Assembly (NCBI RefSeq): GCF_044324875.1
Contig: NZ_CP172185.1
DNA length: 64,000 bases
DNA from: Escherichia coli
Lineage (GTDB): Bacteria; Pseudomonadota; Gammaproteobacteria; Enterobacterales; Enterobacteriaceae
Direction: 5' to 3' (one strand)
In this document: positions 2,564-18,237 of the stretch, in pieces
How positions within the stretch are numbered: position 1 is the first letter of the stretch
Layout: every line of letters begins with the position of its first letter
The notes under the pieces: model-generated
Databases searched by the model: none
What the model was told of the DNA's origin: nothing
What the model saw: only the letters and a program-made list of their open reading frames with translations
Made by a program: the position numbers and the translations under genes

Positions 2564-2677
2564 GTTCACAGATAAAACACTCTCCAGGAAACCCGGGGCG
2601 GTTCACAGGTTTGTCTTTTCGTTCGTAGGGGATTCATTCGCGATTGGCGTTGCGCAATGGTGGGATACGGTAAAGTT

Positions 2678-2722
2678 TTACCGCAGTGATTAATGATGTG
2701 AAGTCAATCCAAATCAATGGAG
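2678..2722 (+). promoter_or_regulatory. conserved 5' leader motif TTACCGCA-TG-TTAATGATGTGAA...GTCAA upstream of a YagK-family gene (copy 1)
   Basis: near-identical motif recurs at 9602-9645 upstream of another YagK-like gene. Confidence 0.45.
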
Positions 2723-2732
2723 ATCTCTCATC

Positions 2733-3464
2733 ATGAACCAACCAATACACAATGCTTACTGGTTATCCCGTTTTGACAGCCTGCTCGACAGTGCCCTGGC
2801 GCAACACCGTGCCGTCTCGTTCATCCGGGTGGATTTACGGTTTCCTGAGTATATGCCTGCCACCATCATGGACTCCGGGCCGGATTCAGCGGTGATTTCC
2901 CGTTTTTTCGCCTCCCTGAAAGCCAAAATTCAGGCTTACCAGCAGCATAAGCGACGTACCAGTCAGCGTGTGCATGCAACCAGCCTGCGTTATTTCTGGT
3001 GCCGGGAGTTCGGAGAGGAAGAAAACAGGAAACATTATCACGTGATATTACTGCTCAACAAAGATACCTGGTGCTCGCTCGGGGATTTCAGCGAACCATC
3101 TTCGCTGGCGGCGATGATCCAGGAGGCATGGTGCAGCGCTCTGCATCTTGAGCCCTGGCAAGGCGATGGTCTGGTCCATTTTTCCAGGTGGAAGCCTTTT
3201 CGTAAACCAGCATCGTCTGATGCCCGTCCTTCTTCCGGTGACACCCCTTTGTCGGGTGGATGTTCTGATACCAGGAAGGCTGCAGACAAAAAGCCGGGTG
3301 AAGCCGCTGTTCTCTGGATCAAGCGTGGTGATGTGGCAGCGATGCAGAAAGCCCGGAAAAGAGCCCGTTATCTCGTGAAAAATCAAACGAAGCAGCATGA
3401 CGGTTCTGGTCAACGTAATTATGGTTGCAGCCGTGGGCCGGGGCGTCTGCTGGATGGCAGGTGA
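2733..3464 (+). CDS. YagK/YfjJ-family protein (inovirus Gp2-like, prophage-associated)
   Basis: 243-aa ORF with VSFIRVDLRFP and HYHVILLLNKD signature segments recalled from CP4 prophage YagK/YfjJ proteins. Confidence 0.6.
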   Translation: MNQPIHNAYWLSRFDSLLDSALAQHRAVSFIRVDLRFPEYMPATIMDSGPDSAVISRFFASLKAKIQAYQQHKRRTSQRVHATSLRYFWCREFGEEENRKHYHVILLLNKDTWCSLGDFSEPSSLAAMIQEAWCSALHLEPWQGDGLVHFSRWKPFRKPASSDARPSSGDTPLSGGCSDTRKAADKKPGEAAVLWIKRGDVAAMQKARKRARYLVKNQTKQHDGSGQRNYGCSRGPGRLLDGR

Positions 3465-3974
3465 AGTCTGTAAAACGGTATCCGGTGCCAGGGGGGGGAT
3501 ATCACGGTAAGGGCGTCAGCCAACGTCTTTCGCTCGTATTCTGATAACCCGTCCTGAAGTCATGTATCTGCTTCCATTCTCATGTTCATATTTCTCTGAC
3601 GCTTTCACTGTCTGTCATCGGAAGTACCGATTTATTTTGGTGCTGCGCACTTACGGCCATTCACGGAAGAGGATTGTGGTGAACAGTAGGAGTCTGGCTG
3701 CTGGCGAGGGAAGGTTCAGGACTGGTATGGGGTTTAGTGCTGGAGGATGACTTTGAATCCCGGATTGACCAGTGAGGGGGCAGTGAGAGGATGCTCTGGT
3801 GTAACAGGTCTGGATTACAAAATATAAAACCGGTTGTACACTCGTAACGGGTAAAAGGATACGGGCAATAACACGTGGTACCCGGTGAGACTGGCTCTTG
3901 TATCACATTACCGGGAATATTCTGGCAGGTGAAATGTTCTGATAAGAATCATCCTGAGGGAGGATACAACGGAT

Positions 3975-4427
3975 ATGAACGTTATTGACAGCCGCATTCG
4001 TGATGTGAAATTTGGTGAAAATGTGAAAGTCGTCATGCCAGTAAACCTCTATGAATGTGAACTGGGGGATGATGTTTTTATCGGTCCCTTTGTGGAAATA
4101 CAGAAGGGATGCATCATTGGCAACCGGAGCCGAATTCAGTCCCACAGTTTCATCTGTGAGAACGTCATTTTAGGTGATGCCTGTTTCATCGGTCATGGCG
4201 TAACTTTTCCTAATGATCTGTTTAAGTGTGGTGGTCCCGATACCTCTGCAGAAAGCTGGATACGCATCGTATTAGGTAACACTGTAACAGTGGGTAGTGG
4301 AGCGACCATTTTAACAACAGAAATTTGCAGTGGAGCTGTGATTGGTGCTGGTAGTGTGGTTACAAAGCCCGTGCTGGTAAAAGGCGTGTATGCGGGTAAT
4401 CCGGCCAGACTTTTGAGAACGCTTTAA
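3975..4427 (+). CDS. hexapeptide-repeat (left-handed beta-helix) acyl/acetyltransferase
   Basis: 150-aa ORF with repeated [LIV]G-x-x-x-x hexapeptide pattern (IGNRSRIQSHSFI, IGHGVTF, VGSGATI, IGAGSVV). Confidence 0.6.
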   Translation: MNVIDSRIRDVKFGENVKVVMPVNLYECELGDDVFIGPFVEIQKGCIIGNRSRIQSHSFICENVILGDACFIGHGVTFPNDLFKCGGPDTSAESWIRIVLGNTVTVGSGATILTTEICSGAVIGAGSVVTKPVLVKGVYAGNPARLLRTL

Positions 4428-4678
4428 TTATTGAATCCAATATTAAACCAGACAGACAGTAAACATAATACTGTTCCGGATATCGCTTGCCGCAGGAACC
4501 TCCTTAACATTCAGGAAAATAAAGCTTTTATTGCTGCTATGTACCATAAGAGACAGAAGTAATTGATTTACCAGTATTACACCTGTTGAAGCTATGGTTA
4601 TTCACCTTTTATTTTTTGAGCAGCGTATTTATACTTCCCGGAGCATTGTTTAAATATAATCGCCCGGGATTGATTCGT

Positions 4679-5584
4679 ATGGCTCTTGAACAGGAAATCG
4701 CAAACCTTGTAAACGAGTTTGTCGCGGCTGGTCGTCCATCCTGTCGTGACCAGACCTTTGATGAACGCCGTGCCGGATATATCGCAAGTACTGCTCTGGC
4801 CGGCGATACAGAAACCCGCGTAAACATCAGTGATGTGATTATTGACGATGTTTTATTGCGCATATTTTCGCCTTTAAACGATGATGGGGTGTTATCCGCA
4901 ATTGTCTATTATCATGGTGGCTGTTTTGTCAGTGGTGGTTTTGTAACCCATGATAATCAGTTGCGACAGCTTGCTTTCCTGAGCGGTTGTCGTGTCATTG
5001 CTGTACAATATCGATTAACGCCGGAACATATTTATCCTGCGGCACATGACGATGCTGAACATGCCGCTAATATTGTGTGGCAACACGCAGAAATGTTGAA
5101 AGTTGATCGCAACAGAATAACGTTAATGGGGGATAGCGCTGGGGGACATCTTGCACTGATAACAGCACTGCGGGTTAAAAACATCGGTCAGTGGTTACCG
5201 CGAAAATTAATACTTATTTACCCTATGCTGGATGCCACAGCATCATGTGATAGTTACAAATTAAACGGTAGTGACTATGTGCTGACAGCAGACACGTTTC
5301 TTAGTGGTTATGAGGCTTATTTTTCCGGTCAGGATTTAGAACATCCGGAAGTGAGTCCATTATTCAGGAATGATTTCAATGGGTTACCACCTGTTCATGT
5401 CATCACAGCGGAATATGACCCATTACGCGATGAAGGTGAGGAACTGTTTTCCCGTATGATTCAACAAGGAGTAAAGTGTACCGCCCAGCGTTATCTCGGT
5501 GTCATTCACGGTTTTTTCCAGCTTGGCGGCATTAGCCAGACAGCCCGTAATCTGATGCAGGATATTTGTGGGATTGTTAAATAA
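4679..5584 (+). CDS. alpha/beta-hydrolase esterase/lipase (Aes-like)
   Basis: HGGG-type oxyanion motif (YYHGGCF) and GDSAGG nucleophile elbow; start placed at first ATG after a TTG-initiated hydrophobic leader. Confidence 0.65.
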   Translation: MALEQEIANLVNEFVAAGRPSCRDQTFDERRAGYIASTALAGDTETRVNISDVIIDDVLLRIFSPLNDDGVLSAIVYYHGGCFVSGGFVTHDNQLRQLAFLSGCRVIAVQYRLTPEHIYPAAHDDAEHAANIVWQHAEMLKVDRNRITLMGDSAGGHLALITALRVKNIGQWLPRKLILIYPMLDATASCDSYKLNGSDYVLTADTFLSGYEAYFSGQDLEHPEVSPLFRNDFNGLPPVHVITAEYDPLRDEGEELFSRMIQQGVKCTAQRYLGVIHGFFQLGGISQTARNLMQDICGIVK

Positions 5585-5830
5585 TCACGTAACAAGCAGC
5601 TACAGGTAAATTAGCTGAGCATGCATCCATCATTTGTCGCTGCGATGCCAGACTTCCGGATGCTCATATGTTGTTTTACTTTTGTCAGCATAAATGCTGC
5701 GTCGGGACTGGTGAATGGAGATAAGCCATTTTATTATCGACGTCAGAGAACATACTCACAATGTCGGTATGTTTCTGAAATTAAGGGTAAGTTTTGCGCT
5801 GATTACAGTATGCGAAGGAGATCTGGCACA

Positions 5831-7423
5831 ATGAATCCCGCTTATATGCAATCCCCCCATTTCCCGGCAGATTTAACATACAGATTATTTCCTCGTAAGC
5901 TTGCGTATCTCATTGACGACTTATATGAAAGTACCCAACTTCCGCTGGATCTCATTTTTAATACTGTACTGGCAACGCTCTCACTCTCCTGTCAGTCATT
6001 GGTTGACGTTGTTCATCCTCACACCAACATGCCGGAACCCTGCTCACTTTATCTGTTGACAATCGCAGAGCCAGGCGCGGGAAAAACAACGATAAACAGA
6101 CTGGTGATGAACCCCTGTTACGACTTTGCCGATCGACTCATTCAACAATACGAAGAGAGAAACAAAGATTATAAAACTGAACTACAGATCTGGAATACCC
6201 GACAGAAAGCTCTTTCTGCCAGTTTAAGAAAGGCTATTAACCGGGGGTATCCGGGAGAACAGGAAGAAGAGGCGCTGCGTAATCACGAAAGAAATAAACC
6301 GACACGTCCGGTTCGACCGAATTTTATCTATGAAGATGTTTCACTTAAAGCGCTTGTGGAAGGACTCAACGAGCATCCGGAGGCGGGAGTTATTTCTGAT
6401 GAAGCGGTAACTTTTTTCAGAAGCTATCTGAAAAATAGTCCTGGTCTGTTGAATAAAGCATGGAGTGGACAACCGTTTGATTTTGGACGGGCTGACGAGA
6501 AATATCATATCACTCCACGCCTGACATTTTCGCTAATGTCCCAACCGGATGTTTTTACGGCTTATATAAATAAAAATGATGTACTGGCCAGGGGAAGCGG
6601 ATTTCTTTCCCGGTTTCTGTTCAGTCAGGTTGTAAGTTCTTCCTGGATACGTGATTATACGAGAGGTGAGTTCAGAACAATACCAACCCTGGAGAATTTT
6701 CATAAAAAGATTAACGGATTTCTGTTAAGCCATAACATTAATTCCCCCGGCATGAGCACCGAAAGGAAGACATTAAAACTTGCGAAGAAAGCGTTGGGGG
6801 AGTGGCAGGAAAACCAGAGTAAGATTGAAAGCAAAGCGCTTGCAGGAGGGGAGTGGGAACACATCAGAGATATTGTTCTGAAAGCAGGTTCTAATATACT
6901 GAGGATAGCGGGTTTATTCACCTTCTATGGCAATAAAGATGCTGAGGAAATTGAATCAATTGCGCTTTTTAACGCCATGCATCTCATGGACTGGTATCTG
7001 GAGGAGGCAAGCGCAATATTTTATCCCATGTCTGAGCGACGCCAGTTTGAGCAGGATGCCTGTGAACTGTATGCATGGATTATGACCCGAATCAGGCAGA
7101 ATAACTGGTGTGCTATCAGGAAAACAGATATTGAAAGATATGGTCCCAATCGACTGAGAAGAGCAGAAAAGCTTACACCTGTACTCAATCAGTTAATTGC
7201 TCAGAATTATTTCTGTATCATCAAAATGCGCTCGCATCAGGCACTTTATGTTTCTGTTCGTAACAATAATGGTTACCTCCTTCCTTTCGGCACAATGTCT
7301 TACGAACCGTTTGATGTTGTACCCTCCTTGTATAGTCATAATGCGAAAATATATCCCGTTAATATTCCACCGGAATTAATCCAGTCATTTGCGTTACCTT
7401 TTTCAGCCTATAACTTATTCTGA
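5831..7423 (+). CDS. P-loop NTPase, DUF3987/YfjI-like (P4 primase-associated helicase-like protein)
   Basis: Walker A AEPGAGKTT; RBS GGAG 10 nt upstream of ATG 5831; architecture recalls CP4-57 YfjI. Confidence 0.5.
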   Translation: MNPAYMQSPHFPADLTYRLFPRKLAYLIDDLYESTQLPLDLIFNTVLATLSLSCQSLVDVVHPHTNMPEPCSLYLLTIAEPGAGKTTINRLVMNPCYDFADRLIQQYEERNKDYKTELQIWNTRQKALSASLRKAINRGYPGEQEEEALRNHERNKPTRPVRPNFIYEDVSLKALVEGLNEHPEAGVISDEAVTFFRSYLKNSPGLLNKAWSGQPFDFGRADEKYHITPRLTFSLMSQPDVFTAYINKNDVLARGSGFLSRFLFSQVVSSSWIRDYTRGEFRTIPTLENFHKKINGFLLSHNINSPGMSTERKTLKLAKKALGEWQENQSKIESKALAGGEWEHIRDIVLKAGSNILRIAGLFTFYGNKDAEEIESIALFNAMHLMDWYLEEASAIFYPMSERRQFEQDACELYAWIMTRIRQNNWCAIRKTDIERYGPNRLRRAEKLTPVLNQLIAQNYFCIIKMRSHQALYVSVRNNNGYLLPFGTMSYEPFDVVPSLYSHNAKIYPVNIPPELIQSFALPFSAYNLF

Positions 7424-8202
7424 AATAAACCAACACAGATGAAACGAAAAAAAACAACATTCATTCGAAGGTTGGTGGTAAGGAGTTTGCATATCCTGCA
7501 TCTGTGCAAATATTCACCAGTTATGGGGCGCGAACGAAAATTTCTCTGAAAAAATCGCTACGGTAGCAACAGTAGCAGCACATGCACCATGTCTGTTATT
7601 TGATTTTGTTTTCATAATGACCTGTTGTCAAAGCTGATTGAATACAGGAGTGTGCGCACTGGTGGAAGAGTGGCTTTCGTTTTTGGTTATTCGAAAGAAA
7701 ATCGAAATATTGTTTTTAACATAGCTGAAGCTAATCATATAACCATATTTTTTGAGTTTTTATATATAACTTTGTTTGATTCTTGTCGTAATGAGTGCTG
7801 GCGTATATGACGATGTCGCTCTCTTTCTGAATAACGAAAGGTTATCAGTCTTTTACTGACAAGAGATGCTGTTCAGGTTTCAATGGGAGATTGAAGAAAA
7901 ACGATTTGATATTTTCCGTGAGAGAATGTCTTGTCAGGTTCATATTCATAACGGATAATTTCTTATTTTCACTCATCAGACATGGATAATTTTAATTTAG
8001 GTTTATTACTATAATTAGTATCTGTTCCTTTATTTTTATCCATCTATCCCTTTATTTTTCATCTATCTATCCTTTTATTATTAGTATCTGTATTTTTATT
8101 ATTGGCATCTGTCTATTTATTTTTATCATTCTCTCCTCTCTGTCTTTACTCTCATTGCTCTTACTCTCATTCTGTTATTTCTACTCGTGTTATCGTGTTC
8201 AC

Positions 8203-8234
8203 TCTATCACTCTATCACTCTATCACTCTATCAC
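8203..8234. repeat. 8-bp tandem repeat TCTATCAC x4 inside a ~300-bp low-complexity AT-rich tract
   Basis: direct reading of 7980-8260. Confidence 0.8.
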
Positions 8235-8985
8235 TCTATCCATCTCTCAATCATAACGATTGTCACTCATATGATACTCAGCCATGTTATTTTCTACTGC
8301 TCTGCTGAGCTTATCTGTCTGTTCTCATCTTCAGTGAAACAGCACCTGATTTTACTCTTATCCATCATGAACTGTCTTTGTTCAACGATGATGGTATGTC
8401 TGATATGTGTTAACCATTTTGATGGGTATCGTTGATTATCCGATGGTTAAGCTTCGATAAGGTTATCCATAGAACAGTGTGGGGTAAGCAACATGATCCC
8501 TGATGATATTTGTTCCGTGTTGTCTTGTTGTTTAAGCGACAGGAAATATGTCAATGGCATGTTTTATTCTGCTGCCGTGAGCCATGCATGTTCTGAAGAA
8601 CAGATTGAATGAGCGCATGTGAGTTTATTACGTTGGCCTTGTACACGTTTTTTTTAGAACCACTGAGAGCAAGTTTGTAGTTTATGATGCTATTGGTCGT
8701 AATATGTTTCTTGAACTTTTGATCGTGGGTTTTTATCTCGTATTTTTCAGCATTTCTCGGTGTTGTATTGCGTCGATATTTTCTTTATTCCCGTTAATAT
8801 CATCTCGTCAGTGTCCATTCCTTTCATCACAATGCGTATCGTTAATAATCTGTTGTATCCATCCGCCTACAGCATGCCTGATAAATACCGTCTGTCAGTT
8901 ATTACCGTTTTAGATCTGATTATGAGCGAAGGTATTCATTCGCTGACAGAACTTAAAACGTCATTAACTTACAGGAGTTATCAGC

Positions 8986-9552
8986 ATGCCTCAGTCTTAC
9001 ACACCAGACTGGTTTTTTACCGCCTTACTTGACCATCACATCGATCAAATGATGGCTCGCTATTCCTGTCTGCGGGCCTTACGGATGGATTTCTTCTACA
9101 GGAAAGAGACGCCTGATTTCTTACAACCTGATCACCGCTGGCTTGAATTGCAGTTGCGTATGCTGCTGGACCAGGTTGAACGGTTTGAAAATATGGTTGG
9201 TTTCTTCTGGGTGATTGAATGGACGGCTGATCATGGTTTTCATGCGCATGTGGTTTTCTGGATCGATCGTCAGAGGGTGAAAAAAATATATCCCTTTGCG
9301 GAGCGGATAACCGAATGCTGGCGGGCTATTACGTATAACTGTGGTTCGGCGCACCGCTGTACATACCAGCCGCATTATGCATACAACATCAACATTCCCG
9401 TGCGCCACAACGATCCTGAAAGCATCGATAATATTCGCGGTGCCCTGCATTATCTGGCGAAAGAAGAGCAAAAAGACGGACTGTGTGCATACGGCTGCAG
9501 CGAAGTGCCTGAACGTCCTGCTGCAGGGCGACCACGCAAGCTTCACGTCTGA
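8986..9552 (+). CDS. YagK/YfjJ-family protein (inovirus Gp2-like)
   Basis: 188-aa ORF, LRMDFFYRKE and FHAHVVFWIDR segments parallel to the 2733 ORF. Confidence 0.55.
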   Translation: MPQSYTPDWFFTALLDHHIDQMMARYSCLRALRMDFFYRKETPDFLQPDHRWLELQLRMLLDQVERFENMVGFFWVIEWTADHGFHAHVVFWIDRQRVKKIYPFAERITECWRAITYNCGSAHRCTYQPHYAYNINIPVRHNDPESIDNIRGALHYLAKEEQKDGLCAYGCSEVPERPAAGRPRKLHV

Positions 9553-9601
9553 AGCTTAAACCCTGAACCTCCGCACCTGGAAACAAGCCATCGGTAAAAA
9601 C

Positions 9602-9645
9602 TTACCGCATTGCTTAATGATGTGAACCGAAGTCAACGGAGTTCA
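9602..9645 (+). promoter_or_regulatory. conserved 5' leader motif (copy 2) upstream of YagK-like gene 9791
   Basis: TTACCGCATTGCTTAATGATGTGAACCGAAGTCAACGGAG matches the 2678-2722 motif. Confidence 0.45.
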
Positions 9646-9790
9646 TTCACCCTGAATGTTCTTTCCTGATATTCCCGCTCAGCGTCGGTTCTTCACCTGT
9701 TCCATCAACCTCATCCGCAGCCTGTAACCCGTCAGCCCATCCATCCCCGGGCAGGACGCGTTGTGGGCTGCGCATAACGGAGCATATCCT

Positions 9791-10366
9791 ATGAATGCTT
9801 TCCCTTATTTCGACGACAGCATGGCCCCCTTCTGGCCTTCGTATCAGAACAAAGTTATTGGCGTTCTTGACCGTGCGCTGCGTGAGCAGTCCGGCTCCCG
9901 GATACGTCGTATCCTGCTTCGTCTGCCGTGGGAACCCGATAACACCTTCAGCAGCCGCAGGACCTGGTTCGGTATGGCCTTTATTGAAACCGTCAGCGAC
10001 CTGATGAATGCAACCCCCGGACGTGACCTCTGCTGGCTCCTGACACGTCATCCTGAAAAGCCGGAATACCACGTGGTGCTGTGCGTCAGGCAGGAGTATT
10101 TCGACGGCCCTGAACTGGATCGGCTGATTCTGGATGCCTGGAGCAACGTGCTGGGCTTCGCCTCACCGGGGGAAGCGGCACCGTATCAGAAGCAGATTAC
10201 CCGGGATGTGCTGCTGGATCCCCGTTCACCGGACTGCGAGGAACTGTTCAGAGACCTGATCTGGGCGTTCAGTGATTTCGCACGTGATCGCCGGGGGGTA
10301 TACGATCCGGAAGCCCGTCACCTCGCCGGTAATCCCTGGTATCCCGGATCAGCAGGACGGCGCTGA
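9791..10366 (+). CDS. YagK/YfjJ-like protein (divergent paralog)
   Basis: RIRRILLRLPWEPD and EYHVVLCVRQEY segments analogous to YagK signature; ATG 9791 follows the conserved leader. Confidence 0.45.
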   Translation: MNAFPYFDDSMAPFWPSYQNKVIGVLDRALREQSGSRIRRILLRLPWEPDNTFSSRRTWFGMAFIETVSDLMNATPGRDLCWLLTRHPEKPEYHVVLCVRQEYFDGPELDRLILDAWSNVLGFASPGEAAPYQKQITRDVLLDPRSPDCEELFRDLIWAFSDFARDRRGVYDPEARHLAGNPWYPGSAGRR

Positions 10367-10430
10367 ACATCATGTTCAGCCGTTCCCCCGAACTTACACA
10401 TCCTTCCATTTCACCGAGGATATTCCGACC

Positions 10431-10664
10431 ATGTTGAGCACAACAACATCCCACGACAGCGTATGGTTGCGTGACGACGATCCCCTGATCGACATGATTT
10501 TCATCACCAGTTTCACCGGCATGACCGACAAATGGTTCTACCAGCTGATGAGCGAAGGCAGGTTCCCGAAGCCCATCAAACTGGGCCGCAGCAGCCGCTG
10601 GTACAGAAGCGAAGTGGAGCAGTGGATGCAGCAGCGCATCGAAGCATCACGGGGAGAAGCATGA
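10431..10664 (+). CDS. AlpA-family phage transcriptional regulator (small HTH protein)
   Basis: 78-aa ORF; FTGMTDKWFYQLMSEGRFPKPIKLGRSSRWYRSEVEQWM matches the AlpA pattern (FPKPxKLG...W...EV..W). Confidence 0.7.
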   Translation: MLSTTTSHDSVWLRDDDPLIDMIFITSFTGMTDKWFYQLMSEGRFPKPIKLGRSSRWYRSEVEQWMQQRIEASRGEA

Positions 10665-10845
10665 AAGGTATTGTGATACCGGTTCGCTGGCAATGTGCAA
10701 ACTGCCGGCGCTGGTATTGTGGTAATCCCCCCTGCCCCTGGTGCTGGCGACCTGCTGCACCGTCTGTCATTCCTCATCCTTCGCTGTAACAGGCATCGTA
10801 CCGGTGCCGGCGTGCTTTCCTGTGCACCGGCACCGGTTCAGAAAC

Positions 10846-11382
10846 ATGCAAAGAGAGCAAATCGTGCAGATAACCGAAACCGTACTTTCAGAGCCGGTGG
10901 AAATCCGGCGTTTTATTCAGCAGGCGGTGGATCACTGGCCGCGTCTGCTGGCCGTTCAGTTCACACTTCATTCAACAGGAGGAAATTGTGACGGGAGGCA
11001 GATTCATGCGTTTTACTGGGCATTTTACCGACAGCTGAATCAGCGAAGCCATACCGGATATCCGTTACTGCCGGTGGTGCTACGCTGGCTGCGGGAAACG
11101 ACAGAAAGCACAGACAGCACCGGGATACGCTGTCTGTTGCTGATCAGCCAGGATCTCATTTGCCCACCAGGATCCGGAATGACGTCTGATGACGCTGATT
11201 CGCACCTTGTGGCGTTACTGCAGCAGGCCGGCACCACACTCACGGCAGAAGGGCACTGTACGGTGGTATGCTGTTACAGGGTGGTGCGTGCAGCCACACC
11301 TGAAGGCGCTGAGTCACTCACGGCATTCAGAAACGCGTGCCTTTCGTTGGCCAGGCCCGTGATGGCCGGCATCATCCGCTAA
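10846..11382 (+). CDS. hypothetical protein, possibly another YagK/YfjJ-like paralog
   Basis: ORF immediately upstream of the helicase; weak resemblance (LAVQFTLH, IRCLLLISQD); start chosen at internal ATG 10846. Confidence 0.3.
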   Translation: MQREQIVQITETVLSEPVEIRRFIQQAVDHWPRLLAVQFTLHSTGGNCDGRQIHAFYWAFYRQLNQRSHTGYPLLPVVLRWLRETTESTDSTGIRCLLLISQDLICPPGSGMTSDDADSHLVALLQQAGTTLTAEGHCTVVCCYRVVRAATPEGAESLTAFRNACLSLARPVMAGIIR

Positions 11383-11508
11383 GCAACATGATGTATCCCG
11401 GTTCAGCCGCTGAAACCGGCTCCTTCAGCAGCAGACCGGTATGAGGTTGTTCCCCCGGACATTCCTTCGTAGAATCCGTGCTGTGTTCGTACTTCCGGAG
11501 CCGTCGCC

Positions 11509-14354
11509 ATGAAAATCTGTCTTTACCATACCCTGAATCCTGAAACGATCCCGGGCTATAAAAAGTTTGCGCAGGCCATTGAGGCAGATAATTTCGCGCA
11601 GGCGGATGTGCGTAAAATTGATACTAATCTCTACCGGGCACGCCTCAGTATCCGGGATCGGTTGTTGTTTTCACTTTACCGTTACCGTGGTGAGACGGTC
11701 TGCCTGGTACTGGAATATCTGCGTAACCATGCTTACCACACGTCACGTTTTCTGCGCAGGAATGTGGTGATCGACGAGGCGCGGCTGCAGCTGCAACCGG
11801 TGCCGGATCCGGCAGATGCAGACGCCGGTACACTGACGTATCTCAACCCCACTCACGGGCGTTTTCACTACCTGGATAAAATGCTCTCTTTTGATGATGA
11901 CCAGCAGGCGCTGTATGAACATCCGATGCCACTGGTGATTGTCGGCTCCGCCGGCAGCGGAAAGACGGCACTGTTACTGGAGAAAATGAAGCAGGCCGGG
12001 GGCGATATTCTGTATCTCAGCCTTTCGTCATTTCTGGTGGAAAAAGCCCGCACACTCTATCACGCATCTGGTGAAGAACATGACGGGCAGACCATTGATT
12101 TTCTGTCGCTGAGCGAGTTTCTGGAAACCCTGCGCATTCCGGAAGGGCGGGAGGTGACGTTCAGTGCGTTCAGCAACTGGCTGCCCCGCAACCGGACCAC
12201 CGCTGCACTGGGCTCTGGCCATACCCTGTATGAGGAATTTCGTGGTGTCATTGGTGCCGTTGCTTCTGACAACGGACCGCTGTCCCGGGAGGCGTATCTG
12301 TCGCTGGGAGTACGTCAGTCACTTTATGATATGGATGACCGTCCGGCGGTTTACGCCCTGTTTGAGCGTTATGTTGCATGGCTGAAACAGTCGCGTCAGT
12401 ATGACAGTAATCTTCTCAGCCACCAGTACCTGCCACTGGCCGGGCACCGTTATGATGTGGTTTTTGTGGATGAAGTGCAGGATATGACGCCTGTGCAGCT
12501 GCGGCTGGTTCTGAAAACCCTGCGTCATCCCGGTCAGTTTGTACTCTGCGGCGATGCCAATCAGATAGTTCATCCCAGCTTTTTTCCTGGAGTGCCCTCA
12601 AAAGCCTCTTTTTCCGGCAGCAACAGAACGAGGCTGCCGTGAATATTCTGCAGGCGAATTACCGTAACGGGCACCATGTCACCGCACTGGCTAACCGGCT
12701 GCTCAGACTTAAACTGGCCCGGTTCAGTGCCATTGACCGGGAAAGTCACCATTTTGTCAGAAGCTGCGGGCAGACGGAAGGCACCATCAGGCTGCTGGAA
12801 GACCGGGAAGCCACCCGCCATGAGCTGAACAGCAAAACCTCCCGCTCAAACCGTGTGGCGGTGATTGTGATGCAGCCGGAGCAGAAAGCACAGGCCCGGC
12901 GCTGGTTCAGTACACCGCTGGTTTTTTCGGTTCAGGAAGTGAAGGGGCTCGAGTACGAAACGGTGATCCTGTACAACATGGTCAGCAGTACCCGTAAGGC
13001 ATTTGATGATATCTGCGAAGGGATCAATCCGGCAGATCCTGAGGGTGAGGTGCGTTATGCCCACCCCCGGGACCGGCAGGATCGTTCAGCAGAAATCTAC
13101 AGGTTTTTCACCAACGCGCTGTATGTTGCGCTCACCCGTGCCACGCACAACGTGTACCTTGTTGAGCAGGAGGTGGCCCATCCGCTGTGGTCCCTGCTGG
13201 CCCTCACGCATCATGAAACGCAACTGGAGCTGCAGGAAGAGATTTCCAGCCGTGATGAGTGGCAGAAAACCGCTCACCTGCTGGAAAAACAGGGGAAGCA
13301 GGAGCAGGTGGACACCATCCGCAGTATGATCCTGCAGGAGTCAGAAGTACCGTGGCAGATCTTCAGCGCAGAGGATGCGCGGCAGTGGAAACAGCAGATC
13401 CTCAGCGGGACGGCGGACAAAGCCACGAAACTGCAGGCGCTGGAATACAGCCTGATTTATTCCCTGTTTCCGCTGTATAATGCGCTGTACCGGGAAGATT
13501 TTAAGCCCACAAGGCAGCCCCGGACCCGGAGCCAGCAGTTACTGGAGCAGAAGTATTTTCGTCCCTACTCAGTGAATAATCCGGTCGCCGTGCTGAGGGA
13601 TATTGAACGTTATGGTGTTGATCACCGCTCGCCGTTTAATCTTACGCCGCTGATGCTGGCAGCCCGGGCGGGGAACACGGCGCTGGTTCAGTTGCTGCTG
13701 GATCGTGGTGCCGATCCCACGCTGACGGCAAATGACGGGCTGGCGGCGTATCATCATGTTCTGTCAGCGGCGGTCAGCACGCCCCGTTATGCGCAGCAGA
13801 AGGGGGCACAACTCTATGCCTTGCCGGGACCGGAAAGCCTGTCACTGCAGGTGGAAGGGCGGCTTGTCAAACTGGACAACCGGCAGATGGCAATGTTTCT
13901 GGTGATCCTGATGCAGGCATTGTTTTACACGCATCTGGGGAATGCTCTGGTTTTTTCAGAAGCCTTCAGTGCGGCACGACTGGCAGAGTGTGTCGCCCAC
14001 TTTCCTGAAGCCCTGCTGCCGGAACGCCGCAGGCGGAGGAATTATATCAGCAGCCAGCTTTCTCAGCATGAAGTTAACAGCAAGAACCCTTATGGAAAAA
14101 AGCTGTTTCTGCGACTGAGGCATGGTCAGTATATTCTTAATCCGGGGCTGAAAATCAGGCAGAATGACGGGTGGTACCCGGTTTACGACTTGCAGTCACC
14201 GGAAGATCTCGGTCATGATTTACAGACGTATCTGCAGGACATGCCCCCGTACATTCTGGAGATTCTGGGGGGCAGGAAGGATGTTTACGAACAAAGTAAG
14301 GGGTCTGTCGGATACTGGGTGGCGATGATCCGCCGTCACAGTGGTGAGCCGTAA
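11509..14354 (+). pseudogene. UvrD/Rep-like SF1 helicase with C-terminal ankyrin repeats, split by a frameshift in a T6 tract (12580-12585)
   Basis: Walker A GSAGSGKT, motif II VFVDEVQD, motif III CGDANQ in frame 1; downstream NYRNG, ALTRATH motifs and ankyrin repeat (LTPLMLAARAGNTALVQLLLDRGADP) in frame 3; adding one T restores one ORF of about 947 aa. Confidence 0.7.
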
Positions 14355-14422
14355 TGTTCCGCACTGCGCGGATATCCTGAAACATGTTCTGTTAATGTTA
14401 CCTGGTTCAGAAGAGATAAACA

Positions 14423-15412
14423 GTGAGCAGCAGGAAAGAGAAAAATACGCCCACGCCGCATGATGCCGCCTTCAGGGCGTTTATGGCCTCAGCAGAGGTG
14501 GCCCGTGATTTTGTTGAACTGCATCTTCCGGCGGAATACCGGCAGTTGTGTGATCTGTCGACGCTGCGGCTGGAGCCCTGTACCTTTGTGGACCAGGATC
14601 TGAAACAGTATGCGTGCGATGCGCTGTTCAGCATGAAGACCGTCAGCGGTGAGGAGGGGTATATTTATTGCCTCGCGGAACACCAGAGTACGGAAAACGC
14701 GTTTATGGCGTTCAGGATGCTCAGATATGCGGTGGCGGCGATGCAGCGTCACTTTGAACAGCACCATGAGCTGCCGCTGGTGATCCCGCTGTTATTCTAC
14801 CACGGTGAGCGGAGCCCGTACCCGTACAGCATGAACTGGCTGGAGTGTTTCAGAAATCCGGAACTTGCTGCTAAAATCTACACCAGACCGTTCCACCTGG
14901 TGGACGTGACGGTACTGGATGACGATGAGATAATGCAACACCGCCGAATGGGGGCACTGACGCTGCTGATGAAACACAGCCGCAGCCGCGACATCATGCT
15001 GCAGATGGACAGGCTGGTTCAGCTGATACAGACTTCACTGAATGAAGAGCTGGCGAAGGCTCTGTTCCACTATCTGCTGAACGGCAGTGAACATGTGACG
15101 GTAAGGTTTTTGCAGACGCTGGCGGAGCGGCTGCCACAGCATGAGGGCAACATAATGACACTGGCTGAACAACTGAAGCAGGAAGGGGAAGTCAAGGGAT
15201 TTGAGCGCGGTATTGCCCAGGGTATGGAGCGCGGTAAGCTAGAAGGCAGAATGGAAGGCAGAATGGAAGGCCGTGCCGAAGGGCGACTCGAAGGACAACT
15301 GGAAGGCAAACTGGAAACGGCGCGTAATATGTTGGCTGAAGGAATGGGGCTTCAGACCATCATGAAAATCACGGGATTGAGTGAAGAACAGCTGAAAAAA
15401 ATCAGCCACTGA
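14423..15412 (+). CDS. Rpn-family recombination-promoting nuclease / putative transposase (YhgA-like, PD-(D/E)xK)
   Basis: 329-aa ORF; N-terminal PHDAAFRAFMASAEVARDF pattern and C-terminal EG(R/K) low-complexity repeats typical of E. coli Rpn proteins. Confidence 0.7.
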   Translation: MSSRKEKNTPTPHDAAFRAFMASAEVARDFVELHLPAEYRQLCDLSTLRLEPCTFVDQDLKQYACDALFSMKTVSGEEGYIYCLAEHQSTENAFMAFRMLRYAVAAMQRHFEQHHELPLVIPLLFYHGERSPYPYSMNWLECFRNPELAAKIYTRPFHLVDVTVLDDDEIMQHRRMGALTLLMKHSRSRDIMLQMDRLVQLIQTSLNEELAKALFHYLLNGSEHVTVRFLQTLAERLPQHEGNIMTLAEQLKQEGEVKGFERGIAQGMERGKLEGRMEGRMEGRAEGRLEGQLEGKLETARNMLAEGMGLQTIMKITGLSEEQLKKISH

Positions 15413-15885
15413 AGCATTGAGGCGTGATGTATAGCACGCCTCGTTCTGTCTGACAGTATTTTGTTTCCTGTGTATTTGGTCGTTTCAGGTCAACCTTTGT
15501 CGGGAGCCTGGCGTTGGTACCTGCTGAGGAAAGAGGGAACTGGACGCAGAGTGACAGTCTGCGAATTGCAGGAAGAGGATGCGAAAGTGTTCGCTTCTTC
15601 CATTGTGTCCCTGATTTAAATTCGGATACTCAAATCTGAAGCGGTGACTCGTATACGTGTGAGTCACCGGGACTACCGCTTGAGTGATGAAAAATAGTCG
15701 TGTTAACGCAAAGCTGAAGTGACACATCTTATTTCAGCGAATGCGTTTGACCGCCTTACTATACACTTTTGAGCATTCTCTTTTCCTGACGGAAACCACG
15801 AAGACGACAATCTTCTCGTCTATAACCTGATATACAAGGCAAAAAACCGTCAAGAGCAGGAGCAGGCGGTCCGCCAGACAGTCCA

Positions 15886-16206
15886 TTGCATAAGGCTATC
15901 AGCTATATCCTGAAACGACCTGATGAGCTGTGCCGTTTTCTGGATGATGGCTCTGTGCCACCGGACAACAATATCTGCGAACGAGCCATCCGCCCGGTCA
16001 CGCTGGGGCGAAAGGCATGGTTATTCGCAGGCTCGCTGATGGCCGGCAAACGCGCGGCACAGATAATGAGTCTTCTGGAAACAGCAAAGCGTAATGGTCT
16101 GGAGCCACATGCCTGGCTGACGGACGTACTGACGCGCCTGCCGGAGTGGCCTGAGGACCGACTGGCTGAGCTGCTGCCTCTTGAGGGATTTACCTTCTCC
16201 GGGTGA
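15886..16206 (+). pseudogene. IS66-family transposase TnpC, C-terminal fragment
   Basis: 106 aa with DNNICERAIRPVTLGRKAWLFAGS, parallel to the C-terminus of the intact TnpC at 23005-24543; no N-terminal part or companion orfs. Confidence 0.75.
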
Positions 16207-16324
16207 CACAACACCTGCCGTCAGGTCTTTGCACACCGGGCCATGGCCTGCTGTCGGGCGTTGAGCGCCTGACAGCGGGTTATTGAGAAAGTCAGTCACC
16301 ATGCGCCTGGCTGACAGTCAGGAC

Positions 16325-16545
16325 CTGCACGTCAGCGCCTCCCTTACCCTGGTCAGGACTTCACTGCCTGCCACAAACTCCCGTGTCAGTACTTCGCGGC
16401 CTGACGCGCTCACCCTACTCAGTCCTTCAGAGCCCGCCTCCGGTACCTGGCAAGGCAGACGCCGGGGCGCAATAAAATAAATCAACCATCGCAGGGCGGC
16501 GATCATTCGCAACAACCGCTGATGACGAGCCCAGAAACGTGTCAA
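16325..16545. repeat. copy A of a ~220-bp diverged non-coding repeat (second copy at 22395-22625)
   Basis: about 75 percent identity to 22395-22625, shared core AATAAAATAAATCA-CCATCGCAGGGCG-CGATCATTCGCA and paired internal direct repeats CCCTGGTCAGGACTTCAC / CCGTGTCAGTACTTCGC. Confidence 0.6.
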
Positions 16546-16554
16546 GACGATTTC

Positions 16555-16689
16555 ACCGGAACCGTTTACCCCAAGCAGAGCGGCAATAGATCCGCCTGGT
16601 ACTGTGAAGGATGCATCGCGCAGTGCTTTCTGCCCGTTTCGCCAGGTGACAGTAACGCCATTAACGACAATACCCGCAGATTGCATCAT
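16555..16689 (-). pseudogene. sitB: sitB 5' fragment (ABC transporter ATPase, truncated inside the Walker A motif)
   Basis: first ~45 codons resemble SitB-type ATPase (SFTVPGGSIAALLGVNGSG) then diverge into repeat A; start overlaps sitA stop. Confidence 0.6.
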
Positions 16690-17603
16690 TACTTCTCCCT
16701 TTTCCCGGCTTTAATTCCCTGCACCAGCGTACTGGTAGTAACCTTCAGAAGGTCGATATACGTAGGTACCGGGCCGTTTTCTGTGCTCAGGGAATCGACA
16801 TAGAGCACACCGCCGTAGTGTGCGCCGGTTTCACGCGCAACCTGACGCGCTGGTTTATCGGAAACCGTACTCTCACTAAATACCGCTGGGATATTATTTT
16901 TCTTCACTATATCAACCACTTTACGTACCTGCTGGGGTGTTCCTTGTTGATCGGCATTTATCGGCCACAGATAAAGCTCTTTTAGCCCCAAATCGCGTGC
17001 GAGATAAGAAAAAGCCCCTTCACTGGTGACCATCCATCTTTTATTCTCAGGGAGTTCAGCAATCTGCTTACGCAGGGGGGCAAGGGTTTGGGTAATCTTG
17101 GCTTTATAAGTATCGGCATTACGTTGGTATGTTTTTGCATTTGCCGGATCGTATTTTATCAACGCATCGCGAATATTATCGACGTAAATCAAAGCATTAT
17201 CTGGCGACATCCAGGCATGAGGGTTAGGTTTTCCCTCGTAGGGGCCTTCGGTGATCCCTACTGGCGTCACACCCGAAGAGACAATCACTTCTGGAACACC
17301 ACTGAGATGCTGGTAAAAGCGCTGGAACCACAATTCCAGATTCATACCGTTGGCGAGAATCAGTTGTGCCCCCTGCGCACGTTTAATATCGCCAGGGGTA
17401 GGCTGATACTCATGAATTTCTGCACCGGGCCTGGTTATGGATGAGACTTCTGCAGCATCTCCAGCCACGTTTTTGGCCATATCTGCGATGATGGTAAATG
17501 TTGTAATGACCTTGAATTTTTCAGTTGCACTCGCCTGAAATGCTATCGAGCAGGTGAGGGCGAGGCACCCCAGGAGCATGGTTACTTTTTTTATTGAGTG
17601 CAT
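16689..17603 (-). CDS. sitA: SitA, periplasmic Mn/Fe-binding protein of the SitABCD ABC transporter
   Basis: 304-aa ORF with signal peptide; recognised as the SitA/cluster A-I metal-binding protein family. Confidence 0.8.
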   Translation of the reverse strand: MHSIKKVTMLLGCLALTCSIAFQASATEKFKVITTFTIIADMAKNVAGDAAEVSSITRPGAEIHEYQPTPGDIKRAQGAQLILANGMNLELWFQRFYQHLSGVPEVIVSSGVTPVGITEGPYEGKPNPHAWMSPDNALIYVDNIRDALIKYDPANAKTYQRNADTYKAKITQTLAPLRKQIAELPENKRWMVTSEGAFSYLARDLGLKELYLWPINADQQGTPQQVRKVVDIVKKNNIPAVFSESTVSDKPARQVARETGAHYGGVLYVDSLSTENGPVPTYIDLLKVTTSTLVQGIKAGKREK

Positions 17604-17635
17604 AATTCAGTACCTATAGTGAGTAAAATTAGAAC

Positions 17636-17657
17636 AAACATAGCAACGGCTATGTTT
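17636..17657 (-). promoter_or_regulatory. MntR operator (palindrome AAACATAGC-AACG-GCTATGTTT) in the sitA promoter
   Basis: perfect inverted repeat matching the E. coli MntR box, 33 bp upstream of the sitA start. Confidence 0.7.
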
Positions 17658-17682
17658 TATAGCATAAGCTATACACAATGCA

Positions 17683-17697
17683 AATGATTATCATTAG
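17683..17697 (-). promoter_or_regulatory. Fur box-like site (AATGATTATCATTAG) in the sitA promoter
   Basis: 13 of 15 match to the core of the Fur consensus GATAATGATAATCATTATC. Confidence 0.55.
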
Positions 17698-18237
17698 TAA
17701 TTCAGACCCCAACACAGGCATTAGGTTGTTTCCTGCTGGCGATGTGGTATTGAGGAAAAGCGTAGGACAGATATCAGGCTTTGAAAGTAAGTGTTAAGTT
17801 AAGCGAACGCCGTATTGACGCTTATTTATTGGTGAGTACTACGTTCCATGGCAGGAGTTCGTCATATAGACGATTATCTCAGTAAACATATTTATCCCTC
17901 CTGATAATTGTCTTTAATGATATGTTTTTATTCTTTTTGAAATAACTCACAAAATGATAATCAGGTCTACACAGAAATGTGATACACATCTTGTTTTTTA
18001 AAGAAGAAAAATGACATTGCTCACATATTTATCTGGGTTTATATAAATAATGTAATTATTGTGAAAAGTAACTATTTGATTTTTAAGTATATATTCGCAA
18101 ATCAAATTAGTTAATATTTCAGAGAAATTAGAAGATCTTCACATTTATAAAATCAGAATGTGATTTTTATCTCGGTTTATTACTTGATGATAAAGTATTA
18201 AAGGTTTTAAATATTATGTTTGTATAGGAGTACAATT

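Follow-up and report, generated by a model that had tools for sequence, protein, structure and literature searches.

A 64,000-nucleotide (nt) stretch of Escherichia coli DNA (contig NZ_CP172185.1 of assembly GCF_044324875.1; hereafter the window) contains, at positions 11509 to 14354 on the plus strand, a broken gene whose repaired product would join a RelE/YoeB-like domain, a helicase of superfamily 1 (SF1), and ankyrin repeats in a single polypeptide. The window copy is an inherited, decaying pseudogene, produced by one contraction of a run of seven thymines to six (T7 to T6) and handed down in an E. coli lineage. By fold, the parts of the protein belong to known superfamilies (RelE/ParE, SF1A helicases, and ankyrin repeats); their combination in one chain appears to be new. 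On balance, we mildly favor the reading in which this pseudogene is what is left of a conflict module that worked on its own, as an abortive-infection or toxin-like enzyme. The window copy matters only as a pointer to a large uncharacterized family of RelE-helicase-ankyrin proteins.

Origin and inheritance of the frameshift

The gene is divided between two open reading frames (ORFs) on the plus strand, ORF1 (11509 to 12642; 377 amino acids, aa) and ORF2 (12639 to 14354; 571 aa), which are halves of one gene. Adding a single T to the T6 run at 12580 to 12585 (plus strand), the site of the inactivating 1-nt deletion, restores an uninterrupted ORF of 948 aa. This bears out the repair proposed in a sequence-only reading of this DNA, in which one extra T was expected to give a continuous protein of about 947 aa. 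ORF1 supplies native residues 1 to 359, followed by 18 out-of-frame residues and a TGA stop. ORF2 starts with a GTG at 12639, and its native frame is open upstream of that codon, from 12586, back to the T6 run. The join between the two is not due to chance, because each of more than 100 homologs is encoded by one ORF of 935 to 1000 aa and because the junction peptide CGDxNQIVHPxFFSW, comprising helicase motif III and the residues just past it, is nearly invariant and forms the most conserved stretch of the homolog alignment. These full-length relatives, recovered in a search of 5.8 billion protein clusters, cover 94 to 100% of the repaired protein. Homologs that were naturally two genes with the same boundary would have spoken against the repair, and the relatives are not encoded in that way.

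To place the broken allele, we compared it with other copies in E. coli, where the locus is carried by 114 of 5426 complete genomes. A look-up of exact sequences placed ORF1, ORF2, and four intact 948-aa E. coli proteins in one cluster at 90% identity. At the site of the break, all seven fetched loci with intact 948-aa alleles read AGCTTTTTTTCCTGG (T7), while the window reads AGCTTTTTTCCTGG (T6); one such T7 protein is EER6665371.1. The window gene is separated from these T7 alleles by about 50 substitutions (98.2% nt identity), which change 16 amino acids. Its closest match is the complete genome of E. coli LH50-c, which is 99.9% identical over 3 kb (two substitutions), has the same T6, and is annotated there as a frameshifted pseudogene. 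More distant intact alleles (83 to 86% identical; EC958/Eco889 and pWR100) carry AGCTTTTTCTCATGG (TTTTTCTCA) at the site and have no homopolymer there. Of the three explanations that the sequence-only reading had offered for the shift (a pseudogene, a sequencing error, or slipped-strand phase variation), the first stands and the other two give way to the shared T6 and its single haplotype.

An error of sequencing or assembly, with the gene really intact, is a natural suspicion, since homopolymer indels are the commonest error of long reads. Yet the same T6 recurs in the independent complete genome LH50-c, two substitutions away from the window within 3 kb, and the exact 377-aa product of ORF1 is encoded on 73 contigs, drawn from assemblies in NCBI, ENA, and Logan. 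We therefore give an artifact almost no credence. Products of the 571-aa ORF2 type are likewise found on more than 50 contigs in public assemblies.

Phase variation deserves more attention, as intact and broken alleles differ at the site by exactly one homopolymer T and both states are common among public E. coli assemblies. A contingency gene in which the run reversibly expands and contracts, T7 being on and T6 off within a lineage, would account for both facts. However, about 50 substitutions part the T6 from the T7 alleles, and every T6-type ORF2 variant in the cluster has the same 13 to 14 differences from the T7 allele. Because all of these variants share one haplotype, the T6 has a single origin, which argues for one event and not for repeated switching. 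The T6 haplotype also carries derived replacements (L511P, R519H, and L773P) at positions where 111 homologs show either a single residue or hydrophobic residues only. A further derived replacement at a position of the same class, A601V, belongs to the window's own sublineage, and a sister T6 variant has W889R at a tryptophan that is invariant in the family. The tract itself is not conserved, given the distant intact alleles that lack a homopolymer, and a run of 6 to 7 nt is short for efficient slippage. Length polymorphism recurring within lineages, at a tract conserved in relatives, is the mark of a contingency locus and was not found here. Thus, phase variation is very unlikely.

The remaining alternative is that the split gene still works. 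The stop codon of ORF1 and the GTG of ORF2 overlap as GTGA (12639 to 12642), which could permit translational coupling of the halves. Coupled translation might be followed by reassembly; ORF1 alone, with the RelE-like domain and half of the helicase, might act as a free toxin-like protein; or some full-length protein might be restored by rare slippage on the U run, either during transcription or as a −1 shift of the ribosome. When we polarized changes on the T6 lineage with two outgroups, we counted one nonsynonymous and six synonymous changes upstream of the shift and seven and five, respectively, downstream. This pattern would fit constraint kept on ORF1 only, just as it suggests decay of the untranslated part, but the contrast between the two regions was not significant (Fisher P = 0.15). 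In addition, the break removes residues 360 to 377, between motifs III and IV and within the most conserved stretch of the family; invariant positions have been substituted in ORF2; and neither a Shine-Dalgarno sequence nor a canonical slippery heptamer was established. We consider a functional split gene to be quite unlikely. With its reading frame interrupted within helicase motif III, the module does nothing in this genome. Inactivation has also occurred independently elsewhere: RM8082 has a different 1-nt deletion, and shortened family members occur in E. coli, Serratia, Shigella, and Piscirickettsia.

Domains of the repaired protein

Across the family, the domains follow a fixed order: a RelE/YoeB-like domain, a linker, a divergent SF1 core, a helical hairpin, ankyrin repeats, and a C-terminal domain. 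The N-terminal domain (aa 1 to 85; 11509 to 11763, plus strand) had been read from the sequence as RelE/ParE-like over its first 95 or so residues. The fold, but not membership by sequence, is supported. An AlphaFold2 model built from 70 homologs (predicted local distance difference test score, pLDDT, of 83; predicted template modeling score, pTM, of 0.80) has a strand, a helix, and four strands, and its predicted topology agrees with the compact alpha/beta fold of the RelE/ParE superfamily, in which N-terminal helices pack on an antiparallel sheet of three to five strands. By sequence, we could not assign the domain to the RelE, YoeB, HigB, or ParE families. It had no match in NCBIfam, Pfam gave no hit for aa 1 to 128 or for any of 70 homologs, and a profile search of PDB sequences with the domain returned none.

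Conservation within the domain is concentrated in a small set of residues. K36, R51, H74, Y76, and F81 are invariant in 165 full-length homologs, and four other positions are nearly so: E69 (164 homologs), R43 (159), R45 (R or K in 163), and R80 (R or K in 165). Two short motifs, LYRARL (11629 to 11646) and NHAY (11725 to 11736), lie on the plus strand. Using hhalign, we aligned the domain with archaeal RelE (1wmi), placing DVRK....LYRARLSIRDRLLFSL over DVIKLEGTGDLDLYRARLGD-YRVIYSV with 48% identity across 23 columns (E = 0.0027, probability 11%). In this alignment, R43, R45, and R51 fall opposite R58, R60, and R65 of RelE, which we take to be equivalent to K52, K54, and R61 of E. coli RelE. 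The NHAY motif, which follows the last strand, may resemble the C-terminal RYHY of YoeB (H83 and Y84), in a register of our own that hhalign did not confirm. Beyond the domain is a less conserved linker (aa 86 to 125; 11764 to 11883, plus strand) that was modeled at a pLDDT of about 73.

The linker leads into a divergent SF1A (UvrD/PcrA-like) helicase core (aa 126 to 555; 11884 to 13172, plus strand). It contains motifs I, Ia, II (DExQD), III (GDxxQ), IV, V, and VI in the order typical of UvrD, Rep, and PcrA, with the frameshift between III and IV. Motif I (GSAGSGKT) lies at 11944 to 11967, motif II (VFVDEVQD) at 12460 to 12483, motif III (CGDANQIVHPSFF) at 12547 to 12585, and motifs IV, V, and VI at 12648 to 12668, 12930 to 12971, and 13116 to 13163, all on the plus strand. 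The sequences GSAGSGKT, VFVDEVQD, CGDANQ, LQANYRN, VKGLEYETV, and ALTRA are conserved across the family; K152 is the Walker A residue, and D321 and E322 are those of Walker B. Together with Pfam matches to AAA_19, UvrD-helicase, UvrD_C, and UvrD_C_2, the coordinates confirm that motifs I to III were left in ORF1, while motifs IV to VI and the ankyrin region were left in ORF2, as first read. The best matches of the core among PDB sequences were PcrA, UvrD1, HelD, and UvrD, at E-values of only about 1e-3, and the best PADLOC matches were partial ones to GajB models (E = 1e-11).

A conserved helical hairpin (aa 582 to 610) precedes the ankyrin-repeat domain (aa ~621 to 771; 13368 to 13820, plus strand), which is built of tandem 33-residue helix-turn-helix repeats. 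The sequence-only reading was right about the presence of ankyrin sequence but had described a single repeat at the C terminus. The domain instead holds multiple repeats over some 150 residues, and a further domain of 170 residues comes after it. This last domain (aa ~777 to 945; 13836 to 14342, plus strand) is a conserved alpha/beta domain with the basic motif RRKRxxYISSxLSxxE...YxxKLFxRxxxGxYxxNP and the invariant W889. Its matches in AFDB50 were all uncharacterized members of the same family.

Family distribution and proposed function

In a phmmer search of 1.84 billion representative sequences (E ≤ 1e-3), the N-terminal domain was found in 303 clusters at 50% identity. Among these representatives, we found no convincing case of the domain standing free or fused to another partner; all hits were colinear over the N-terminal domain and helicase, or were fragments. 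Family members are found in Gammaproteobacteria, Alphaproteobacteria, Bacteroidota, and Deinococcota and on cyanobacterial plasmids. A few long variants (1370 to 1394 aa; P0155 and P0221) have an additional C-terminal module of about 470 aa that combines DUF1186 with a SEC-C zinc motif. In Endozoicomonas acroporae, a stand-alone DUF1186 and SEC-C gene (L021:13873-14922) lies 3 kb from the helicase gene, a possible partner link of the fusion type.

The gene is present in 135 plasmid records, 103 of which are Shigella pINV; other carriers include plasmids of Piscirickettsia, Polymorphobacter, Methylosinus, Cetobacterium, Deinococcus, Thermus, and cyanobacteria. The pINV plasmids come from S. flexneri, S. 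sonnei, S. boydii, and S. dysenteriae; they carry an intact gene that divergently adjoins the shf-capU-virK-lpxM operon. The ortholog on pWR100 of S. flexneri M90T (WP_010921718.1; L018:6938-9850) shares 86% aa identity. An intact copy is also found in ST131-type E. coli (EC958), the EC958-type protein being WP_001545777.1. No phage-borne copies were found in 50,697 phage records, a result that is uninformative either way.

The genomic settings of the family are varied. In E. coli and Enterobacter, the gene lies in island backbones like that of CP4-57 (AlpA, YagK/YfjJ, YfjI/DUF3987, and Rpn), and in Salmonella it lies at the edge of an integrative element. The Piscirickettsia plasmid carries DruA, MazEF, a RelE/ParE pair, and a SIR2 gene in the surroundings. 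Other toxin-antitoxin (TA) neighbors are HipBA at one locus, MazE/PIN at another, and many TA pairs in Nitrococcus. Across the roughly 12 contexts examined, there was no conserved neighbor or antitoxin gene, so the family does not have the arrangement of a type II TA system.

We hypothesized that the intact proteins are single-protein conflict modules. The helicase core, ankyrin repeats, and C-terminal domain would together act as sensor and regulator, answering to nucleic acid or protein of foreign origin. As the gene comes with no antitoxin, restraint in cis would be needed, and the toxin domain would be kept off by the rest of the protein. Once released, the N-terminal domain, whose basic residues, His, and Tyr form a set like that of YoeB/RelE, would be the effector, cutting RNA, most likely ribosome-bound mRNA, so that translation stops. 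Patchy presence, a solitary gene, contexts rich in mobile elements and TA genes, repeated independent inactivation, and ATPase motifs that are intact family-wide all count toward a conflict module. That the tethered domain is a translation-arresting effector under sensor control is a serious possibility, although we place it somewhat short of even. More tentatively still, we propose that the intact proteins make up a new class of immunity or abortive-infection enzymes, each a single chain in which an SF1 helicase with an ankyrin and C-terminal sensor licenses an antitoxin-free RelE/YoeB-type ribonuclease to stop translation, and that the member on pINV of all four Shigella species could affect phage susceptibility or plasmid competition.

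Several observations weigh against this proposal. The mapping of catalytic residues comes from the 23-column match to RelE with its probability of 11%, and hhalign against YoeB did not support the register that pairs H74 and Y76 with that toxin. Even a true RelE fold can be non-nucleolytic, as in ParE. Ordinary metabolic genes surround the homologs in Halomonas, Pistricoccus, and Endozoicomonas, several homologs have such neighbors and no mobile element evident nearby, and a defense context was clear at only a few of the ~12 loci (a descriptive count). In PADLOC-DB v2 and NCBIfam, only generic helicase and ankyrin segments matched, and there was no model for the combination. Finally, our literature search found no experiment or paper that ties any member to phage defense or RNase activity.

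Some of the same facts could be explained if the protein were a helicase of DNA or RNA metabolism serving a mobile element or the host, for example in replication, recombination, plasmid maintenance, or RNA and ribosome quality control, with the RelE-fold domain as a non-catalytic adaptor that binds nucleic acid, ribosomes, or protein. In sequence, the core is closest to PcrA, UvrD, and HelD, a factor that recycles RNA polymerase, some homologs are surrounded by housekeeping genes, and the gene is stably kept on pINV in four species of Shigella. The DUF1186 and SEC-C module on some long variants points in the same direction, SEC-C being a motif of SecA and YecA that binds ribosomes or SecB. 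In the conflict reading, too, this extension of some members may hint at the ribosome. However, patchy presence and frequent inactivation do not suit a gene for housekeeping or maintenance, the invariant Lys/Arg/His/Tyr/Glu set has the look of an active site and not of a mere scaffold, and there is no conserved linkage with replication or partition genes. We regard a non-toxin role of this kind as less likely, and we retain the conflict module as the favored reading.

The proposed conflict module differs from known systems. The combination of domains has no Pfam architecture name, and full-text literature searches found no description of it. Thus, the earlier impression that this architecture is not a named system holds, with no match for the family in PADLOC, NCBIfam, or the literature. 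Type II mRNA interferases of the RelE, YoeB, and HigB types are free toxins of about 90 aa, whereas the domain described here, with putative activity, is the N terminus of a 948-aa protein that has no antitoxin gene. The closest precedent for control may be Cami1, an ancillary ribonuclease of type III CRISPR systems in which a CARF sensor that binds cyclic oligoadenylate is fused to RelE and which acts within CRISPR loci. Cami1 shows that a RelE domain joined to a sensor can operate in this manner; here, however, the partner is an ATP-driven SF1 helicase with ankyrin repeats, and nothing connects the family with CRISPR. If our proposal is true, the family would represent a second, independent way, after Cami1, to control a RelE-type translation toxin without an antitoxin, here by coupling it physically to a motor driven by ATP and to a sensor built of repeats.

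Among helicases, the family core shares the SF1A motif set with GajB of Gabija, other UvrD-like defense helicases, PcrA, UvrD, and HelD. Yet the matches cover only ~100 residues around motifs II to IV at weak E-values (~100 of 540 to 600 profile positions for GajB), and the core is compact (~430 aa) and very divergent. Gabija is defined by a full-length GajB match beside GajA, an OLD/TOPRIM nuclease; no GajA-like neighbor was found. Nhi-type nuclease-helicases likewise combine a nucleic-acid-cutting domain and an SF1 helicase in one polypeptide, and there was a weak PADLOC match to Nhi over the helicase motifs (E = 1e-6). We take Nhi to have a DNA nuclease domain and a helicase of a different subgroup. 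In the present family, the putative nuclease is instead RNase-like with a RelE fold, and an ankyrin domain is added. RNase L, which pairs an ankyrin sensor with an RNase effector, offers an analogy only, as it has a KEN/HEPN fold, is activated by 2-5A, lacks a helicase, and is eukaryotic. We also considered whether the "RelE-like" system of Vassallo 2022 is the same protein and rejected this, since that system consists of RelE and a phage-sheath-like domain. Testing the intact copies would be cheap, as existing strains suffice, and the outcome would be relevant to phage therapy and to the biology of plasmids in important pathogens.

Genes around the window copy

Upstream of the broken gene, two tandem ORFs of the YagK/YfjJ (inovirus Gp2-like) type (8986 to 9552 and 9761 to 10366) are followed by a gene of the AlpA type with a helix-turn-helix (10272 to 10664), all on the plus strand. 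The first YagK/YfjJ ORF is annotated as frameshifted in LH50-c, and several genes of the island backbone look degraded. In CP4-57 of K-12, the slot after alpA-yfjI-yfjJ presumably holds the defense genes AbpAB (yfjLK) and RnlAB. This fits the remark in the sequence-only reading that the broken gene, lying after AlpA and a YagK-like gene, occupies a position where defense cargo is common.

Between the AlpA-type gene and the broken gene is an ORF of 172 aa (10864 to 11382, plus strand). We considered it as a cognate antitoxin and rejected it, as it belongs to the enteric island backbone only and is absent beside non-enteric homologs. Our own Pfam scan gave no match for this gene; precomputed matches assign it to PF27752 (UCP030791). 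In every enteric locus, it is conserved upstream of the helicase gene. The window has an intact copy beside the broken helicase gene, and all seven loci with the intact T7 helicase have a copy split by a frameshift (L008:5363-5871). In EC958-type loci, both the helicase gene and the 172-aa gene are intact, and the reciprocal pattern of breakage may be due to chance.

Directly 3′ of the helicase gene, in the window as well as in EC958-type and T7 loci, is an Rpn-family gene (PD-(D/E)xK, Transposase_31; 14423 to 15412, plus strand), the C-terminal part of which contains the short repeat EGRxEGRxEGRxEGRLEGQLEGKLE. Past it lies debris at 15734 to 15886 (minus strand), 15886 to 16206 (plus strand), and 16318 to 17603 (minus strand). 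This debris consists of what remains of the C-terminal part of a canonical RelE/StbE toxin (...VVFVVSVRKRECSKVYSKAVKRIR), a fragment of an IS66 transposase, a shortened sitB, and an intact sitA. The RelE/StbE sequence has no relation to the RelE-like domain in the helicase protein.

The window and LH50-c are colinear over 2664 to 17864 (98.7 to 99.9% identity), and this colinearity ends at about 17864. Beyond that point, a single 1.25-kb block (33432 to 34679) matches the fetched stretch of LH50-c (L020); the window therefore belongs to another strain, in which the downstream arrangement differs. In LH50-c, a cluster of polysaccharide deacetylase, glycosyltransferase, and lpxM genes lies about 7 kb downstream of the helicase gene.

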